This document shows, in pieces, positions 444-8,160 of a stretch of 64,000 nt of DNA. The notes under the pieces are model-generated. The model ran no database searches and was not told the DNA's origin. It was given only the letters and a program-made list of their open reading frames with translations. Both the position numbers and the translations under genes were made by a program. Source of the DNA: an uncultured Clostridia bacterium (GTDB lineage Bacteria; Bacillota; Clostridia; Christensenellales; UBA3700). Positions within the stretch are counted from its first letter, which is position 1, and every line of letters starts with the position of its first letter. The stretch is from NCBI GenBank assembly GCA_947646415.1, contig CANSGN010000010.1, positions 1,399-65,398 of the forward strand, in the 5' to 3' direction.

Positions 444-758
444 TACAATTTTTGAAGTTATCCTTCTCCAAAGAAAAAAATTCATTAAGAGTTTTAGTGT
501 ATTTTTGCACCGCAAACTTTTTGCGGCAGCAAAAATACTAACTTTTTACAATCTTACACCGAATTATTTGGTATTTTATATATTATACACCTAATTTTTT
601 GAGTTTGTCAAGTAAAATACCGAATTTTTTGGCATTGTGTAGATAATAATAAAATTATAGCTTTATTTCGATTTTTTTCGTAAAAATAAAATAATTTAAT
701 AACTGAAATAAATCACTAAATATTTCTCAAATTTTATTTTTGTAGAGGGGGTAGCAAT

Positions 759-1100
759 ATGGAGTACAATAACAAGCTAAAAGAATTGAGAATATCCAAA
801 GGTTTTTTCCAAAAAGACATTGCAACTAAAATCGGCGTTGCGACAAACACTTATCAATCTTGGGAGCGAGGAATAACTCAACCCGATATTTCCAATTTGA
901 TAAAACTTAGTAATGTTTATGCCTGCTCTGTCGATTACATTATCGGCAAGGAAACCGAGGAAGGTATGATAATGTTTACTAACAACTTAAGTGAAGATGA
1001 AAATATCTTTATCAATACCGTAAGACAACTTAGTCTAAAAGACAAAGGCATTTTGTTTGACTTGGCTTTGACTATGCTTAAAGCAAAAAATATAAAATAA
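759..1100 (+). CDS. XRE-family helix-turn-helix transcriptional regulator
   Basis: 113-aa ORF. It has an N-terminal HTH_3-like segment (LKELRISKGFFQKDIATKIGVATNTYQSWERG). A purine-rich RBS (AGAGGGGG) lies upstream of the ATG. Confidence 0.8.
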   Translation: MEYNNKLKELRISKGFFQKDIATKIGVATNTYQSWERGITQPDISNLIKLSNVYACSVDYIIGKETEEGMIMFTNNLSEDENIFINTVRQLSLKDKGILFDLALTMLKAKNIK

Positions 1101-1248
1101 TAGTATTTTTAATATCAAGCCTTATATCAACACGCAATTATAAAAAGTTTTAATCAAATTATCGGCTCAAATGCTAAGTTTTTGTAAAATTGCTTTATTT
1201 AATATTGTATTTATGTTATAATATATAAAATAATATAGTAGGTGCATT

Positions 1249-1716
1249 ATGCGAAAGTCAAACAGAGAAATACACGGCTTGGATAAAATAGTTGACATTA
1301 TACAAAACACAAATACAATAAGGTTGGGTATAAATGACTCCCCTTACCCTTATGTTGTGCCGGTTTCTTTTGGTTTTGACGTGCAAGATGACAAACTTTG
1401 TTTTTATTTTCATGGTGCAACCATAGGTAAAAAAGTACAGCTTTTAGATAAAAACCCGTTGGTTTGCGTGGAAGGAGACATTTTTCACCGTTATATGGAT
1501 ACGATAAAATCGGTAACTTGCCTTTACGAAAGTTTTATAGCATACGGCAAATGCACTTTACTGAACGGAAATGATGCTATCCACGGCCTAAAACAAATTT
1601 TAAAGCATTGCAATTATTCCGACCACACCTTTAATACGGATGTTTTACCTATAGTAAATGTATATAAAATAGAGGTAGAAAGCATAACCGCAAAACACAG
1701 GACAAAAGATAATTGA
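1249..1716 (+). CDS. Pyridoxamine 5'-phosphate oxidase-family FMN-binding split-barrel protein (NimA-like)
   Basis: 155-aa ORF. The pattern TIRLGINDSPYPYVVPVSFGF...LCFYFHGATIGKK is typical of the PNPOx-like/Nim family. An RBS (TAGGTG) lies upstream. Confidence 0.65.
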   Translation: MRKSNREIHGLDKIVDIIQNTNTIRLGINDSPYPYVVPVSFGFDVQDDKLCFYFHGATIGKKVQLLDKNPLVCVEGDIFHRYMDTIKSVTCLYESFIAYGKCTLLNGNDAIHGLKQILKHCNYSDHTFNTDVLPIVNVYKIEVESITAKHRTKDN

Positions 1717-1920
1717 TATATAATTAAAAATATATAAAATATGATATATAAATATTTTTACAATTATATATCTGCAATGCAGTTTGCTAATCTCTATTTG
1801 TTGTAGATAAACGTAAAATATAATTTGTTAAAAATAAAAAGAAAATTTTAAAATAACACTTACCTATTTACTTGACATTACCGTAAATTTTGTATATACT
1901 TTTTAGGTAACCGAATAAAT

Positions 1921-1997
1921 GGACGATTAGCTCAGCTGGATAGAGCGTTGCGCTACGGACGCAAAGGTCAGGGGTTCGAATCCCTTATCGTTCACCA
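1921..1997 (+). tRNA. tRNA-Arg (anticodon ACG), CCA encoded
   Basis: Hand-folded cloverleaf. Acceptor GGACGAT/ATCGTTC. D arm GCTC-AGCTGGATA-GAGC. Anticodon stem TTGCG/CGCAA with loop CTACGGA. T arm AGGGG-TTCGAAT-CCCTT. Discriminator A followed by CCA. Confidence 0.93.
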
Positions 1998-2010
1998 TAA
2001 GGGAATAAGA

Positions 2011-2049
2011 CGAACTCTTTATTTAGTAAGGAGTTCGGTTTATTTTTTA
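2011..2049 (+). terminator. Rho-independent terminator after tRNA-Arg
   Basis: Stem CGAACTC (2011-2017) / GAGTTCG (2031-2037), followed by GTTTATTTTTT. Confidence 0.7.
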
Positions 2050-2061
2050 TGAATGATTGTT

Positions 2062-2196
2062 ATGGAGTAAAATCAAGACAGTGGAGAAAAAACGGAAAAA
2101 ACTTATTATGTTAGGTCTGGTTGGATGGTTTTTTCAAATGGAAAATTAAAAAGTAATACATTAATAGCAGGATGGTGGTTAAATGAAGTTGTTTGA
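2062..2196 (+). pseudogene. 5'-truncated remnant of the cassette's larger gene (last ~38 codons only)
   Basis: It translates to SGEKTEKTYYVRSGWMVFSNGKLKSNTLIAGWWLNEVV*, against the C-termini of 2709-3326 and 3833-4450. An in-frame TAA lies just upstream and there is no start codon. A 1-nt length difference occurs at the homology boundary. Confidence 0.85.
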
Positions 2197-2551
2197 TAAG
2201 GTTAAAGTGTTGGTTTCAAAGCCAGAATATGAAAAATGGGAAATTTTTAAAGGAATGGTAGGGACAATTATTGATGCAGAAATACGTTTTAGGGCATTTC
2301 AAGTTATCTTTACTGACCCTACACCAGTAACATCAGAAAATTGGGATTATATTGATTTAAAAGATGATATTTTGTGCTATATTCATGTAAAAGATTTGGA
2401 AGTTGTTGAAGAAAGCGATTGCACAGATGAGTATTTGTTAGAAAATTTACCAAATCAAGATATAAGATGGTTTTGTAAGGTGGAGGATGGTTTTATAATC
2501 AACTTGCTTGGCGAAAAATTGAACAAAATACCTTACGATTATGACAGTTAA
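2183..2551 (+). CDS. Cassette small protein, copy A (immunity/antitoxin-like; DUF4926-like N-terminus), orphan
   Basis: 122-aa ORF. Its ATG lies inside the ...AAATGAAGTTGTTTGA overlap with the remnant upstream. It is a paralog of 3313-3675 and 4437-4799. Confidence 0.8.
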   Translation: MKLFDKVKVLVSKPEYEKWEIFKGMVGTIIDAEIRFRAFQVIFTDPTPVTSENWDYIDLKDDILCYIHVKDLEVVEESDCTDEYLLENLPNQDIRWFCKVEDGFIINLLGEKLNKIPYDYDS

Positions 2552-2708
2552 TTTATCAAGAATTTAATTTGATAATTAATTTTATTTTTAACAAGCTTTA
2601 AAATAACATTTTTTTATACAATAATGCAAAAGAATTTGTCATAAAACCATTTAAAAATAATTTTTATGCCTTACAATATAGTTAAAAAATATAATTGTGA
2701 GGTGGAAA

Positions 2709-3326
2709 ATGTTAGCAGAGTGGACAAGCAAATGGATTAAAGTTTTTGACAAATTAAACGATGTTGTCATTGATGATTTTGATTATGAACATGGTATACA
2801 TGGTCTAATAACAACTAAACATTGTGTAAAATGTATTGCAGCAAATCAGTGTTGGTTTGTAGATGAAAAAAATAAAAAACCTGAACAAATGGAATATAGC
2901 TTTGAAGAGATATTAAAGGATACAAAGAATAAAAGAGGGTTGTACCATTATAATTGTCATTGCAAAGAAATAAACATTCCTACCCCCAAAGAATCTGAAA
3001 TAAAATTAATTATTCCCGAAGGAAAAATTGGATGGTTGTTTAAAGATAAAGAGGGATTGGTAAAAAAAGCGTTGGGTTATGAGCCAAATGATGACTTCTT
3101 AGAATATTTTAAAAAACAGGTTTTGAAAAGTTATTGCCAAGGTAAATATTACATATTAGGCATTGATGAACATGGTGTGGCAATAAGTGTTAAAGTAGAA
3201 ATCAACGGCAGTGGAGAAAAAACGGGGAAAACTTATTATGTTAGGTCAGGCTGGATGGTTTTTTCAAATGGAAAATTAAAAAATAATACACTAATAGCAG
3301 GATGGTGGTTAAATGAAGTTGTTTGA
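2709..3326 (+). CDS. Cassette large protein, copy 1 (MuF-like CxxC...HxNCxC knuckle plus a variable C-terminal putative toxin domain)
   Basis: The ORF track starts at GTG 2697. ATG 2709 is preferred because GAGGTGG sits 4-10 nt upstream. Motifs present: HCVKCIAANQCWF and LYHYNCHC. The stop overlaps the next gene's start by 14 nt. Confidence 0.8.
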   Translation: MLAEWTSKWIKVFDKLNDVVIDDFDYEHGIHGLITTKHCVKCIAANQCWFVDEKNKKPEQMEYSFEEILKDTKNKRGLYHYNCHCKEINIPTPKESEIKLIIPEGKIGWLFKDKEGLVKKALGYEPNDDFLEYFKKQVLKSYCQGKYYILGIDEHGVAISVKVEINGSGEKTGKTYYVRSGWMVFSNGKLKNNTLIAGWWLNEVV

Positions 3327-3675
3327 TAAGGTTAAAGTTTTAGAGTCAAGACAAAGATATAGTGAAAGAGAAATATATAAAGGAATGATTGGCACAATAA
3401 TAGATGCTGAAATTAGAGGAAGGACATTTAATGTGATTTTTACTGACCCGACTCCATTTACCGAGGAAACTATGTATTCAATCAAACCCGATATTATTTG
3501 TGCAATTTACATTAAAGACTTGGAAGTTGTAGAAGAGAGCGATTGCACAGATGATTATTTATTGATAAATTTACCAAAACAAAATCCAAAATGGTTTTGT
3601 AAAGTAGAAGATGGATATATAATCAACTTGCTTGGCGAAAAATTGAATAAGATTCCTTATGATTATGACAGTTAA
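3313..3675 (+). CDS. Cassette small protein, copy B (immunity/antitoxin-like)
   Basis: 120-aa ORF. It is translationally coupled by a 14-nt overlap. The KLFDKVKVL...KGM.GTIIDAEI...VIFTDP...KDLEVVE pattern resembles DUF4926. Confidence 0.8.
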   Translation: MKLFDKVKVLESRQRYSEREIYKGMIGTIIDAEIRGRTFNVIFTDPTPFTEETMYSIKPDIICAIYIKDLEVVEESDCTDDYLLINLPKQNPKWFCKVEDGYIINLLGEKLNKIPYDYDS

Positions 3676-3832
3676 TTTATCAAGAATTTAATTTGATAAT
3701 TAATTTTATTTTTAACAAGCTTTAAAATAACATTTTTTTATACAATAATGCAAAAGAATTTGTCATAAAACCATTTAAAAATAATTTTTATGCCTTACAA
3801 TATAGTTAAAAAATATAATTGTGAGGTGGAAA

Positions 3833-4450
3833 ATGTTAGCAGAGTGGACAAGCAAATGGATTAAAGTTTTTGACAAATTAAACGATGTTGTCATTGATGA
3901 TTTTGATTATGAACATGGTATACATGGTCTAATAACAACTAAACATTGTGTAAAATGTATTGCAGCAAATCAGTGTTGGTTTGTGGATGAAAAAAATAAA
4001 AAACCTGAACGAATGGAATATAGCTTTGAAGAGATATTAAAGGATACAAAGAATAAAAGAGGATTATATCATTATAATTGTCATTGCAAAGAAATAAACA
4101 TTCCTGCTCCCAAAGAATCTGAAATAGAATTAATTATTCCCGAAGGAAAAATTGGATGGTTGTTTAATGATAAAGAGGGATTGGTAAAAAAAGCTTTGGG
4201 TTATGAACCAAACGAAGAATTTTTAGAATATTTTAAAAAACAAGTTTTGAAGAGTTATTGTAAAGGACAATATTATATATTAAATATCAATAAGTATGGT
4301 GTATCCATAAGTATTAAAGTTAAAGTTGAAGGTAGTGGAGAAAAAACGGGGAAAACTTATTATGTTAGGTCAGGCTGGATGGTTTTTTCAAATGGAAAAT
4401 TAAAGAGTAATACATTAATAGCAGGATGGTGGTTAAATGAAGTTGTTTGA
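3833..4450 (+). CDS. Cassette large protein, copy 2
   Basis: The ORF track starts at 3821, with ATG 3833 behind GAGGTGG. The first ~100 aa are nearly identical to copy 1. A divergent patch lies at aa ~148-169. Confidence 0.8.
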   Translation: MLAEWTSKWIKVFDKLNDVVIDDFDYEHGIHGLITTKHCVKCIAANQCWFVDEKNKKPERMEYSFEEILKDTKNKRGLYHYNCHCKEINIPAPKESEIELIIPEGKIGWLFNDKEGLVKKALGYEPNEEFLEYFKKQVLKSYCKGQYYILNINKYGVSISIKVKVEGSGEKTGKTYYVRSGWMVFSNGKLKSNTLIAGWWLNEVV

Positions 4451-4799
4451 CAAAGTTAAAGTTTTAGTTTCAAAGCCAGAATATGAAGAGCAAGAAGTTT
4501 ATAAAGGAATGGTAGGGACAATAATTGATGCAGAAATTAGAGGAAGGTCGTTTCATGTGATTTTTACTGACCCCACACCATTTACTGAAGAAACGATGTA
4601 TTCAATTAAACCAGATATTTTATGCGTTATAGATATAAAAGACTTGGAAGTTGTTGAAGAGAGCGATTGCACAGATGATTATTTATTGATAAATTTACCA
4701 AAACAAAATCCAAAATGGTTTTGTAAAGTAGAAGATGGATATATAATCAACTTGCTTGGCGAAAAATTGAATAAGATTCCTTACGATTACGATAGTTGA
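4437..4799 (+). CDS. Cassette small protein, copy C (immunity/antitoxin-like, mosaic of A and B)
   Basis: 120-aa ORF with a 14-nt overlap with 3833-4450. Confidence 0.8.
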   Translation: MKLFDKVKVLVSKPEYEEQEVYKGMVGTIIDAEIRGRSFHVIFTDPTPFTEETMYSIKPDILCVIDIKDLEVVEESDCTDDYLLINLPKQNPKWFCKVEDGYIINLLGEKLNKIPYDYDS

Positions 4800-4906
4800 T
4801 TTATTAGGAATTTCTATTATCTGAAGTTGTCGCCAAGCAGCCCGTAGGGATATTTGACAGCAACTAATGCTAATTCAAACTATTTGTAAAATTTGAAAAT
4901 CTAATG

Positions 4907-4942
4907 GTGCTATGGTCTTAAATGACTATGGCACTATTTTTT
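4907..4942 (+). terminator. Rho-independent terminator closing the cassette array
   Basis: Stem GTGCTATGGTC (4907-4917) / GACTATGGCAC (4924-4934), followed by TATTTTTT. Confidence 0.75.
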
Positions 4943-5231
4943 ATGTGTTTTAATCTAGATTTTTTATGTGTTAAAAACCAATTTAGCCTAAATTGTGCCA
5001 AAATTTGACATTTGTTTTTTGCTATTGCCAATTTTTGGTAATAGTTTTATAAAATTAGTAATCATTATCACTTTTTACATAAATTTTTCTTTTCATATTA
5101 TAATGCTATATGATTTGAATAATTAAACGTATAATAATAACTCTAAGTTTTTTAAACTAAACAAAAGGTATAAAATAAAGTAAAAAGTAGCAAAAATATG
5201 TGATAAAAATTTTACATAGATTTTTACTTGA

Positions 5232-5290
5232 ACACAACATATTGTGGTCAAATTGCCAAAATCTCAAAAAATGACCACAATATATTGATT
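5232..5290 (+). promoter_or_regulatory. Two NrdR-box-like palindromes upstream of nrdD
   Basis: ACACAACATATTGTGG (5232-5247) and CCACAATATATTGATT (5275-5290), compared with the recalled consensus acaCwAtATaTwGtgt. Their centres are ~43 bp apart. Box 2 abuts the -35. Confidence 0.7.
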
Positions 5291-5297
5291 TTTCCTC

Positions 5298-5326
5298 TTG
5301 ACAACGAATATAATTTGTTGTATACT
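5298..5326 (+). promoter_or_regulatory. Sigma-70/SigA-type promoter of nrdDG
   Basis: TTGACA (5298-5303), a 17-nt spacer, then TATACT (5321-5326). RBS AAGGAG lies before the ATG at 5370. Confidence 0.7.
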
Positions 5327-5369
5327 GAATGAGCAATATCAGTAAACCCAAAGAAGAAGGAGAAATTTT

Positions 5370-7679
5370 ATGATTAAAAGCATTATTAAAAGAGATGGCA
5401 GAAAAGTTCCATTTAATTTGCAAAAAATTGCCGATGCTATTTTTAAAGCAGCAGCATCTGTTGGAGGAAGCGACCATGATACCGCATTAGAGCTTGCAGT
5501 TGAGGCTTGCGAGTATTTGGAAAGCCAAGGCAACACTACCCCAACCGTGGAGGAAATCCAAAACGCAGTTGAAAAGACATTAATTGAAAAGGGACACGCA
5601 CAAACTGCCAAAAACTATATTCTTTACAGAGCAAACCGTACAAGAGCAAGAGAAATGAAAACTTCTCTTATGGAAATCTATAAAGATTTGACTTTTAAAG
5701 ATGCAAAAGATAATGATATAAAAAGAGAGAACGCTAACATTGACGGCGACACTGCAATGGGTACAATGTTAAAGTATGGTAGCGAAGGTGCAAAACAATT
5801 TAACAAATTGTTTGTATTGCGTCCTGAACATGCAAAAGCTCATGAAGAGGGAGACATTCATATTCATGACCTAGACTTTTTGACATTGACTGAAACTTGC
5901 TGTCAAATAGACCTAATCAAATTGTTTAAAGGCGGTTTTTGTACCGGACACGGCTTTTTGAGAGAGCCTAACGACATAGCATCCTACTCCGCACTTGCAG
6001 CAATAGCTATTCAATCCAACCAAAATGACCAACACGGCGGACAAAGTATTCCTAACTTTGAATACGCAATGGCTATCGGTGTAGCAAAATCTTATAAGAA
6101 AATTTACAAGAAAAATCTTATCAAGGCTTTGGATATTTACGAAATCGAAAACGCTGAGGAAGTTGCTAACAATATAACAAATTCTCTTGCAGAAAAGGAT
6201 ATCGTTCCTAAGCTAGAGAAAGACGATTATATGATTGAAGAGGCAAAAGAGCTTGCAAAAATCGGTATTAAAGACGAAAGTATCAAAAAAATTCAAAAGT
6301 TCACAAAGAAATATTCGGAGCAAGAAATTGACCGTGCAACATACCAAGCAATGGAGGCTTTTGTTCACAATTTGAACACAATGCACTCTAGAGCAGGCGC
6401 ACAAATTCCGTTTAGCAGTATCAACTACGGTACAGATACCACCCCTGAAGGCAGACTTGTTATTAAAAACATTATGCTAGCAACAGATGCAGGTTTGGGT
6501 AACGGCGAAACAGCTATCTTCCCTATCCACATATTTAAAGTAAAAGAGGGTATCAACTACAATAAACAAGACCCTAACTACGATTTGTTTAAACTTGCTA
6601 TCAGAGTATCTGCAAAAAGGTTATTCCCTAACTTCTCGTTTATTGATGCTCCATTTAACCTACAATACTACAAAGAGGGCGACTACAGGACTGAAATAGC
6701 TTACATGGGTTGCCGTACAAGGGTTGCAGGTAACGTTTATGACAAGGATAGAGAGATTGTTACTCAAAGAGGTAACTTATCATTCACATCAATCAACTTG
6801 CCTAGACTTGGTATTCTTGCAAAAGGCGATTTAAACAAATTCTATGAAATGCTTGACGAAAAACTTAATTTGGTTTCCGACCAATTAATGGACAGATACA
6901 AAATTCAAGCTAAAAAGAGAGTTAAAAACTATCCGTTCCTAATGGGTCAAGGTGTATGGCTAGACAGCGATAAGCTAGACTACGAAGATGAAATCGGCGA
7001 GATTTTAAAACATGGTACATTGTCTATCGGATTTATCGGTCTTGCAGAGTGCTTGGTAGCACTTACAGGCAAACACCACGGAGAGAGTGAGGAATGTCAA
7101 AAACTAGGTTTGGAAATCATCAAACACATGAGAGATTTTACTGAAAAACTTTGCGAGGAAACTCACTTTAACTACTCTGTTATCGCAACTCCTGCAGAAG
7201 GACTATCCGGCAGATTTGTAAGAATCGATGCTAAAAAGTTCGGTAAAATAAAAGGCATTACAGATAGAGAATATTATACAAACTCTTTCCACGTTCCTGT
7301 TTATTACAATATTGCAGCTTTGGATAAAATCAAAATCGAAGCACCTTATCACGCTTTGACAAACGGCGGACATATCAGCTATATCGAGCTTGACGGCGAC
7401 CCTCTAAAGAACTTGGATGCTTTTGAAGCTTGCGTACGTTGCATGAAAGAGGCCGGTATAGGATATGGCTCAATCAACCACCCAATAGATCGTGACCCTG
7501 TTTGCGGATATAATGGAATAATCGATAATGTTTGTCCTAAATGTGGCAGAAAAGAGGGCGACGGCAAACAAAACTTTGAGAGAATCCGCAGAATTACAGG
7601 ATATTTGGTAGGTACTGTTGATAGATTTAACAATGCAAAACGTGCCGAAGTAAACGACAGAGTAAAACACCATGTGTAA
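5370..7679 (+). CDS. nrdD: Anaerobic ribonucleoside-triphosphate reductase (class III RNR)
   Basis: 769 aa. It has an N-terminal ATP-cone, a C-terminal Zn ribbon (CPKCG) and the glycyl-radical motif RRITGYLVG. Confidence 0.95.
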   Translation: MIKSIIKRDGRKVPFNLQKIADAIFKAAASVGGSDHDTALELAVEACEYLESQGNTTPTVEEIQNAVEKTLIEKGHAQTAKNYILYRANRTRAREMKTSLMEIYKDLTFKDAKDNDIKRENANIDGDTAMGTMLKYGSEGAKQFNKLFVLRPEHAKAHEEGDIHIHDLDFLTLTETCCQIDLIKLFKGGFCTGHGFLREPNDIASYSALAAIAIQSNQNDQHGGQSIPNFEYAMAIGVAKSYKKIYKKNLIKALDIYEIENAEEVANNITNSLAEKDIVPKLEKDDYMIEEAKELAKIGIKDESIKKIQKFTKKYSEQEIDRATYQAMEAFVHNLNTMHSRAGAQIPFSSINYGTDTTPEGRLVIKNIMLATDAGLGNGETAIFPIHIFKVKEGINYNKQDPNYDLFKLAIRVSAKRLFPNFSFIDAPFNLQYYKEGDYRTEIAYMGCRTRVAGNVYDKDREIVTQRGNLSFTSINLPRLGILAKGDLNKFYEMLDEKLNLVSDQLMDRYKIQAKKRVKNYPFLMGQGVWLDSDKLDYEDEIGEILKHGTLSIGFIGLAECLVALTGKHHGESEECQKLGLEIIKHMRDFTEKLCEETHFNYSVIATPAEGLSGRFVRIDAKKFGKIKGITDREYYTNSFHVPVYYNIAALDKIKIEAPYHALTNGGHISYIELDGDPLKNLDAFEACVRCMKEAGIGYGSINHPIDRDPVCGYNGIIDNVCPKCGRKEGDGKQNFERIRRITGYLVGTVDRFNNAKRAEVNDRVKHHV

Positions 7680-8160
7680 AATAAGAATTGCAGGCTTAGT
7701 CAACGACTCTATTGTAGACGGCCCGGGAATGAGACTTACCGTCTTTTGCCAAGGCTGTCCGCATAACTGCAAAGGCTGTCATAACAAACATACCCACGAT
7801 TTTAAAGGCGGATATGATATGGACATTGACGAAATTGTTGAAAAAGCCAAAAAAAATAAAATACTTAGCGGAGTAACTTTTAGCGGTGGCGAGCCAATGT
7901 GCCAACCAAAAGCTTTTTTACAGCTTGCAAAAAAAATAAAAGCCGAAACCGACTTAAACATAATTTGCTACACAGGTTACACACTTGAAGAGCTTGAGCA
8001 AATGAACAATGCAGATATAAATGAACTGCTTGATATTTGTGATTGGTTGATAGACGGCAGATTTTGCGAAGAACTAAAGGACTTGACTCTTCCTTTCCGC
8101 GGAAGTTCCAATCAGCGCATAATAGAGCTTAAAAACAATACTATTGATTGGACAAGATAA
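7672..8160 (+). CDS. nrdG: Anaerobic RNR activating protein (radical SAM)
   Basis: 162 aa. The cluster motif CQGCPHNCKGCHN is present. An 8-nt overlap with nrdD (ATGTGTAA) links the two genes. Confidence 0.9.
   Translation: MCKIRIAGLVNDSIVDGPGMRLTVFCQGCPHNCKGCHNKHTHDFKGGYDMDIDEIVEKAKKNKILSGVTFSGGEPMCQPKAFLQLAKKIKAETDLNIICYTGYTLEELEQMNNADINELLDICDWLIDGRFCEELKDLTLPFRGSSNQRIIELKNNTIDWTR

Follow-up and report, generated by a model that had tools for sequence, protein, structure and literature searches.

Recombination among tandem copies of a predicted DUF6883-like toxin/SH3-fold immunity cassette in an uncultured Clostridia bacterium

In orphan cassettes of contact-dependent growth inhibition (CDI) and Rhs loci, recombination through conserved sequence changes the active set. 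In tandem esaG (Staphylococcus aureus) and tipC (Streptococcus) immunity genes, conserved blocks are crossover sites that give rise to chimeras and copy-number change, as described by Garrett et al. (2022, PMC9484751). According to a 2026 preprint (10.64898/2026.08.28.747851), DUF6883 is the same as BECR-Tox3, a family of predicted RNase toxins of the BECR fold; the domain is reported to have, as a rule, a DUF4926 gene downstream and to be often fused to Phage_Mu_F. Here, we describe a stretch of 64,000 nucleotides (nt) from an uncultured Clostridia bacterium (assembly GCA_947646415.1, contig CANSGN010000010.1; the whole stretch is referred to as the window), in which the region between a tRNA-Arg gene and nrdD is filled by a tandem array of two-gene cassettes, with a large gene for a predicted toxin and a small gene for a presumed immunity protein.

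The variable region spans window positions 1998–4981 and is bounded by tRNA-Arg and nrdD. Its units recur head to tail every 1124 nt, starting directly 3′ of tRNA-Arg(ACG), in the order decayed large-gene remnant, small gene A, large gene 1, small gene B, large gene 2, small gene C, hairpin, nrdD and nrdG. No further cassette copies were found in the source genome (1.73 Mb, 31 contigs). Sequence exchange among array members, which had been proposed in an original prediction made from this DNA, is strongly supported, mostly by evidence other than copy C: a test for recombination across the gene family, incongruent trees, shared tracts and arrays in other assemblies. The part of that prediction that took C as direct proof of exchange is not supported. 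We think it likely that the array consists of DUF6883-like toxin/SH3-fold immunity cassettes and that homologous recombination among the copies reassorts block alleles, homogenises sequence and alters copy number. The features of the array are as follows (ORF, open reading frame; aa, amino acids).

2062–2196, + strand: 3′ remnant of a decayed large (toxin) gene that runs into the beginning of small gene A (matched by tblastn to residues 150–209 of the large protein, with 2 stops; repeat family D1; upstream translation)
2183–2551, + strand: small gene A, 122 aa, orphan and immunity-like (ORF)
2537–2860, + strand: 324-nt tract identical to 3661–3984, comprising the small-gene end, a 157-nt spacer and the large gene up to its nt 152 (position-by-position comparison)
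2709–3326, + strand: large gene 1, predicted toxin, 205 aa from ATG (longest ORF from GTG at 2697; public gene calls give 205 aa)
3313–3675, + strand: small gene B, 120 aa, with a 14-nt overlap with the end of large gene 1 (ORF)
3343–3372, + strand: block I of B, codons 11–20, ESRQRYSERE, a divergent allele (common to G20, P0013 and P0014)
3833–4450, + strand: large gene 2, 205 aa, 91% aa identity to large gene 1, overlapping small gene C (ORF)
4437–4799, + strand: small gene C, 120 aa, TGA stop (ORF; orthologue in genome G024 98% identical in aa)
4532–4538, + strand: best-supported breakpoint in C, gene nt 96–102, codons 32–34, at the edge of a conserved block (maximum chi-square; conservation profile)
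4656–4783, + strand: 128-nt tract identical to 3532–3659 of B, in the 3′ third (dS 0.17, dN 0; synonymous and nonsynonymous substitutions per site, respectively)

The original prediction placed the three small ORFs correctly (A, 2183–2551; B, 3313–3675; C, 4437–4799), with the sequences claimed, and described C as a mosaic whose first ~100 nt resemble A and not B. The three-way DNA alignment agrees with this description: over gene nt 1–96, the identity of C is 87.5% with A and 77.1% with B, whereas over nt 97–369 it is 91.0% with B and 79.0% with A. Among 76 informative sites, 16 of the 22 located 5′ of the breakpoint are A-like and 43 of the 54 located 3′ of it are B-like. Breakpoint detection, which had been proposed as a check together with the alignment, gave a maximum chi-square of 18.7 between gene nt 96 and 102 of C (window 4532–4538), with a permutation p of 0.0002–0.0004 and a Fisher p of 3e-5. 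The same triplet test with B as the “child” gave p = 0.04, and with A as the “child”, p = 0.30. Given the low breakpoint p, the mosaic pattern in C is real and not a matter of chance. The accompanying claim, that C follows B almost exactly from about codon 35 onward, is correct for the protein (82 of 87 residues) but not for the DNA, where codons 34–72 are only 82% identical, with dS of ~1.0.

The A-likeness of the 5′ part of C arises almost wholly from one 30-nt block, gene nt 31–60 (4467–4496 in C; codons 11–20; block I), in which A and C read VSKPEYE... and B reads ESRQRYSERE. When this block was removed, the breakpoint test gave p = 0.12; thus, the 5′ signal rests on 30 nt at which B holds a divergent allele. 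Codons of the 5′ part that are synonymous in all three copies split evenly, three A-like and three B-like, with no preference for A. By the Nei–Gojobori method, dS between B and C is 0.99 (nt 1–99), 1.00 (nt 100–216) and 0.17 (nt 217–369), and dS between A and C over the same segments is 0.52, 1.22 and 0.72; dN/dS is below 0.4 in all segment comparisons. These values show three differing histories within one small gene. The 5′ likeness between A and C dates far back (dS 0.52), and the mid-gene part of C that resembles B at the protein level is an old shared allele class. The 3′ third is the second feature, besides block I, that carries the mosaic signal: in codons 73–120, B and C share 96.9% DNA identity, including 128 identical nt (3532–3659 and 4656–4783). 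Since selection on the protein does not explain the fall of dS to 0.17, the data indicate that the 3′ third of B and C was homogenised by fairly recent conversion.

Copy C is an old allele and not a fresh hybrid of A and B. The sister species G024 has the same neighbourhood (helix-turn-helix (HTH) regulator, pyridoxamine-phosphate-oxidase-like gene, tRNA-Arg, array, nrdD), with two small genes and one large gene in the array. Its last small gene encodes a protein 98% identical to that of C and has the same mosaic structure, with a uniform dS between C and G24_C by segment (0.11, 0.15 and 0.12). Thus, C predates the split of the two lineages and was not made from the present A and B. Given its G024 counterpart and the 5′ dS of A and C, the view that C in itself directly documents an A × B event in this array is not supported. 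C-type proteins were also found in other samples (P0001–P0003; 98–99% aa identity). As regards block I, VS[KN]PEYE is the common form, present in A, in C, in most family members and in the outgroup genus. The B allele belongs to a rarer class also found in G20, P0013 and P0014. In the 5′ tree, B clusters with G20 (support 98/91); elsewhere in the gene the two are apart and B groups with C. The odd copy in block I is B.

Recombination is evident across the small-gene family. The pairwise homoplasy index (PHI) test on small-gene DNA of the genus set gave an observed value of 0.586 against 0.660 ± 0.010 in permuted data (p ≤ 0.0005); a second genus likewise gave p ≤ 0.0005 and all 24 sequences gave p = 0.001. 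The four variable blocks occur in 17 allele combinations among 26 proteins of close relatives, with four-gamete violations. A clean reassortant, P0015, combines a C-type block I with A-type blocks II–IV. P0004, P0008 and P0009 have yet another allele of block I, joined to blocks II and III of the C type and to a block IV of either the C or the A type. The DNA of the one small gene at locus L057 has a run of C-only sites, followed by ~35 A-only sites and then by C-only sites again. The inferred switches lie at or beside more conserved stretches of the small gene (gene nt ~1–19, 86–95, 131–138, 212–227 and 325–358), as judged from a qualitative conservation profile; a strict threshold for “conserved blocks” in the small gene returned none.

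Within the window array, units 1 and 2 share the 324-nt identical tract and units 2 and 3 the 128-nt tract, and the surrounding DNA is 10–30% divergent. The 324-nt tract is the product of a recent conversion or duplication. The clearly recent conversion tracts span conserved parts (the 3′ third of the small gene, the spacer and the 5′ end of the toxin gene) and not the variable blocks. In G024, the two small genes share G024-specific substitutions (e.g., I103T), which points to concerted evolution after speciation, and the single complete unit is a patchwork of window units 1 and 2, with a large gene that changes from large-gene-1-like to large-gene-2-like exactly at position 3137. Differences between large genes 1 and 2 cluster at 3135–3212 and 4259–4336, respectively.

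The original prediction had proposed a search for alternative arrangements and copy-number variants. We carried it out on assembled contigs of other samples, all of them short-read metagenome assemblies or metagenome-assembled genomes (MAGs), with flanks 93–99% identical to those of the window, and found 0, 1, 2 or 3 small genes at the site, in varied orders and with chimeras. G021 has no array, and its homology to the window resumes at 4982. Loci L057, L058 and L061 contain one orphan small gene each and recur in several runs. G024 has a small gene X, then a chimera of large genes 1 and 2, and then C′, its counterpart of C. L064, on a 53-kb contig, reads B, a gene for a 198-aa toxin, an A-like gene (A′), large gene 1 and B, and L067 reads B, large gene 1, B, large gene 2 and C. 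Large gene 1 is followed by B in all three arrays with a readable downstream gene (window, L064 and L067), and large gene 2 is followed by C wherever the downstream gene is readable. The 198-aa protein (L064, 2876–3472; L068, 614–1210) is a third toxin type, 61–63% identical to large proteins 1 and 2. In both L064 and L068, its complete gene immediately precedes one with 93% identity to A, and this toxin type may be the cognate partner that A has lost in the window.

In L053 (G021, contig C9), from a relative of the same genus, 242 nt of unrelated sequence (1434–1675) separate tRNA-Arg from the nrdD upstream region, with no cassette. The site that the array occupies is variable and has no repeated tRNA end. 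The flanks of L064, compared with window positions 702–1997 and 4982–8160, are 94.8% identical on the left and 98.6% on the right, and the locus may be a recombination boundary between lineages. The relatives also have cassettes at other chromosomal sites, namely L039 (G024, contig C4, 5721–6690), L040 (G021, contig C1, 5037–5995) and L037 (G021, contig C5), some of them complete and some with a frameshifted large gene. The family is thus dispersed as well as tandem.

The large protein is predicted to be a toxin with RNase activity. A profile built from 40 homologues and searched against 1.8 billion representative sequences retrieved 372 relatives, among which are proteins of 300–530 aa matched through their C-termini only (E = 1e-10 to 1e-12). 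Each of the ten long proteins tested contains DUF6883, seven of them at or above 27 bits, the Pfam gathering cut-off. One long DUF6883 protein has an N-terminal Tox-PAAR-like domain and another a peptidoglycan-binding domain. Alignment by hhalign to verified DUF6883 C-termini gave a probability of 99.3% and E = 4.6e-20 over large-protein residues 98–204, and on this profile comparison we assign the ~105 C-terminal residues to the DUF6883 (BECR-Tox3) superfamily. The AlphaFold2 (AF2) model (predicted local distance difference test (pLDDT) score, 89.8) has a Cys/His-rich N-terminal domain and a helix at 128–143 followed by four antiparallel strands, which is compatible with a BECR-type alpha/beta fold. 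The large protein has a variable hairpin at residues ~147–170. Among viral structures, a “minor capsid protein” matches the model best (E = 2.9e-4). Phage_Mu_F (PF04233) had no match at E ≤ 1 in the large protein and none in the genome, and a DUF6883 profile search of the source genome had no match. A phmmer search of PDB sequences with the large protein yielded nothing meaningful; there were no matches in NCBIfam or PADLOC, and in PHROGs only weak ones to families of unknown function.

The small protein is presumed to be the immunity partner, translationally coupled to the toxin; the gene for this small SH3-like barrel lies directly downstream of the toxin gene with a 14-nt overlap. Its model (pLDDT 97.3) is an SH3/KOW-like barrel (residues 1–75) with a short C-terminal extension. 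Foldseek aligned residues ~1–75 with L24/KOW, PsaE and SH3 domains at a probability of ~1 and E of ~0.03; no PDB match was found at E ≤ 0.001. The family comprises 220 homologues, of which P0020, P0023 and P0095 (57–70% identical to C) carry PF16277 (DUF4926) on record. Many small genes of the family adjoin truncated large genes upstream, as expected of immunity genes kept after toxin loss. The variable blocks correspond to codons ~10–22, 34–40, 46–68 and 79–104. In the model, block I occupies the loop and helix between strands 1 and 2, and block III the long loop 44–60 and the next strand. Any role of the blocks in specificity is one that we infer.

We propose the following explanation. A, B and C would be three paralogous immunity genes, with A orphaned behind a decayed toxin gene. 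In the small genes, conserved blocks take turns with variable ones, of which there are at least four, each existing as a small number of old and discrete alleles. Tandem copies, and probably also strains, would recombine homologously with crossovers in the conserved blocks, by gene conversion and by unequal crossing-over, so that block alleles are reassorted, conserved parts homogenised and copy number changed. B and C are close relatives whose 3′ third was recently homogenised, B holding a different old block-I allele; A is a more distant paralogue with the common block-I type, like C, and C predates the split from the sister species.

Several points weigh against this explanation. The large proteins themselves score only 15.5–16.7 bits for DUF6883 (PF21814; E = 0.009–0.022), below the cut-off of 27, and the small proteins score 16.9 (A), 12.6 (B) and 17.2 (C) bits for DUF4926, below the gathering cut-off of 29.1. 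The hhalign targets were found with the same profile, so that this bridge is partly circular and not fully independent, and Foldseek of the large-protein model against the PDB gave no match at E ≤ 0.001. Polarity of the events is not provable from three sequences. In short-read assemblies, tandem repeats can collapse or be mis-joined, and part of the single-gene or chimeric arrays could be artefactual, but the recurrence of several of them in independent samples and with different assemblers makes repeat collapse less likely. As every direct family score falls short of its threshold, a secretion or delivery domain is lacking and the Cys/His domain has no assigned function, the cassette might be another two-gene module (e.g., a phage-derived structural/regulatory pair), its mosaicism unrelated to immunity specificity. 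This is rather unlikely in view of the profile–profile match to DUF6883 C-termini that end long proteins, the PAAR-like one included, of the published DUF6883–DUF4926 neighbourhood, of the frequent cases in which the large gene has decayed and the small one is kept, and of the fixed downstream partners of the toxin genes (B for large gene 1, C for large gene 2). Nor do we think that the mosaic and the array variants arose by mis-joining or collapse of near-identical repeats during short-read MAG assembly. The source genome (G000) is a 31-contig assembly, its units share identical stretches of 128–324 nt at which assembly graphs branch, and several supporting contigs are only 2–7 kb long. Such an origin is nevertheless very improbable: exact or near-exact copies of C, B and large genes 1 and 2 turn up across independent samples and assemblers; 14 contigs carry a large gene 1 that could be read, and the longest of those shown measures 53 kb; the order large gene 1–B–large gene 2–C is found in L067; C′ next to nrdD was assembled independently in G024; and the single-gene loci of P0009 and P0004 recur in six and three contigs, respectively, from different runs.

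The other two alternatives concern the history of A, B and C. One could imagine no recombination among them, with uneven rates instead: fast divergence of block I in B under selection by its toxin partner, combined with a constrained 3′ third. The 5′ signal indeed lies in amino-acid-changing codons of a single 30-nt block, and the rooted 5′ tree has the A-type at its base and unites C with B, G20, G23, G21_c5 and G21_c1 in a group that leaves out A (89/95), so that the topology of the triplet may not change along the gene. We regard this account as distinctly unlikely, since selection at the protein level is no explanation for the drop in B–C dS from ~1.0 to 0.17 or for the 128-nt identical run, block I of B is common at the DNA level to G20 on a different background, and the family-wide PHI result and the block reassortants require recombination. 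The opposite view, close to the original prediction, would have C as a recent chimera of this genome, formed either by an A/B crossover or by conversion of the initial ~100 nt of a B-like gene with a tract from A. The triplet test does single out C (p = 3e-4 vs. 0.04 for B and 0.30 for A). However, the same mosaic occurs in G024 and in P0001–P0003 with uniform dS (0.11–0.15), and with A–C dS of 0.52 at the 5′ end and B–C dS of 1.0 in mid-gene, neither A nor B is a recent donor; block I of C (EYEEQEVY) differs from that of A (EYEKWEIF) at 4 of 12 residues, and 5′ sites with synonymous changes only show no preference for A. A recent origin of C is, therefore, extremely improbable.

An extension of the proposed explanation, which we find doubtful, is that the variable blocks (I and III) would be independent modular determinants of specificity, such that reassortment of old alleles makes new immunity specificities combinatorially. 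If this were true, short arrays and orphan genes could cover many toxin variants of competing strains or phages, and the locus would represent a natural “cassette-shuffling” immunity repertoire, beyond neutral homogenisation.

The boundaries of the variable region and the hairpins are listed below.

1921–1997, + strand: tRNA-Arg(ACG), left boundary of the variable region (ARAGORN; 100% conserved in G024, G021 and G023)
2011–2037, + strand: terminator-like hairpin 3′ of the tRNA (consensus scan)
4903–4938, + strand: terminator-like hairpin closing the array (consensus scan)
4982–5369, + strand: nrdD upstream region, right boundary, where homology with the array-free relative G021 resumes (blastn against L053)

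The immediate neighbours, inspected over the first ~10 kb of the window, are chromosomal: an HTH regulator, a Pyridox_ox_2 (pyridoxamine-phosphate-oxidase-like) gene, tRNA-Arg and nrdD/nrdG. An integrase-type island was considered and dropped, there being no second partial tRNA 3′ end in 1921–5370 and no integrase-like ORF among the immediate neighbours. A weak promoter-like site, TGGAGA-16-TATTAT (9/12), is present inside the 3′ end of each large gene or remnant (2082–2109, 3212–3239 and 4336–4363). By consensus match only, these sites upstream of each small gene might permit small-gene expression independent of the toxin; in the consensus scan, promoter-like sites in the array region were no more frequent than in shuffled sequence. 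The stop codon is TGA in C (4794–4799) and TAA in A and B. Several public gene calls at loci L057–L063 read TGA as Trp, which results in proteins of 150–152 aa (“with_TGA=W”). These calls look like a choice of genetic code made by the gene caller on short contigs, because nrdD is intact under table 11.

When compared with described systems, the array resembles esaG and tipC in having non-identical tandem immunity paralogues with conserved blocks flanking variable parts, and in its recombination statistics, chimeric genes and copies gained or lost between related strains (in our case, in short-read assemblies). Unlike EsaG/DUF600 and TipC, the window small protein is SH3-fold and DUF4926-like; the toxin genes are interleaved in the array and share in the exchange; and arrays of the window type are short, with 1–3 copies as opposed to up to 12 for esaG. 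EsaG and TipC confer immunity to toxins exported by a type VII secretion system (T7SS); the array showed no T7SS link, and no search was aimed at T7SS genes. The likeness is one of process and not of family membership. By family, the closest parallel is DUF6883/BECR-Tox3 with DUF4926 (10.64898/2026.08.28.747851), with which the cassette shares a homologous C-terminal domain, a small downstream SH3-like gene of weak DUF4926 similarity and the same gene order. It differs in that the window proteins are below both Pfam cut-offs, the small protein has an extra C-terminal part of ~45 residues, and the toxin is a free-standing protein of 205 aa with a short Cys/His N-terminal domain, unlike BECR-Tox3 domains at the end of a long delivery protein.

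With the MuF polymorphic toxins of temperate phages (Jamet et al. 2017, PMC5576092), the large protein has in common a kind of toxin domain reported fused to Phage_Mu_F, the viral structural match to a “minor capsid protein” and a gut Firmicute host. Unlike those toxins, it has no detected Phage_Mu_F domain, its neighbours are chromosomal and not a phage packaging module, and its genes are in tandem. Tandem cassettes and orphan immunity genes beside toxin fragments recall the orphan cassettes of CDI and Rhs loci (for Rhs, Koskiniemi et al. 2014, PMC3967940). Here, however, the large genes are complete, with their own start and ribosome-binding site, and are not 3′ fragments awaiting fusion, and no main cdiA or rhs gene is present. 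Seen against these systems, the mosaicism reflects the ordinary way in which toxin–immunity loci evolve and reveals no new mechanism. With the array, a little-studied toxin–immunity family of gut Clostridia, in which a DUF6883-like toxin stands free and is paired with an SH3-fold protein, joins the systems with tandem immunity paralogues that recombine block by block. The compact natural set of chimeras (B, C, P0015 and the P0004/P0008/P0009 types) could serve directly to map the parts involved in immunity–toxin recognition.

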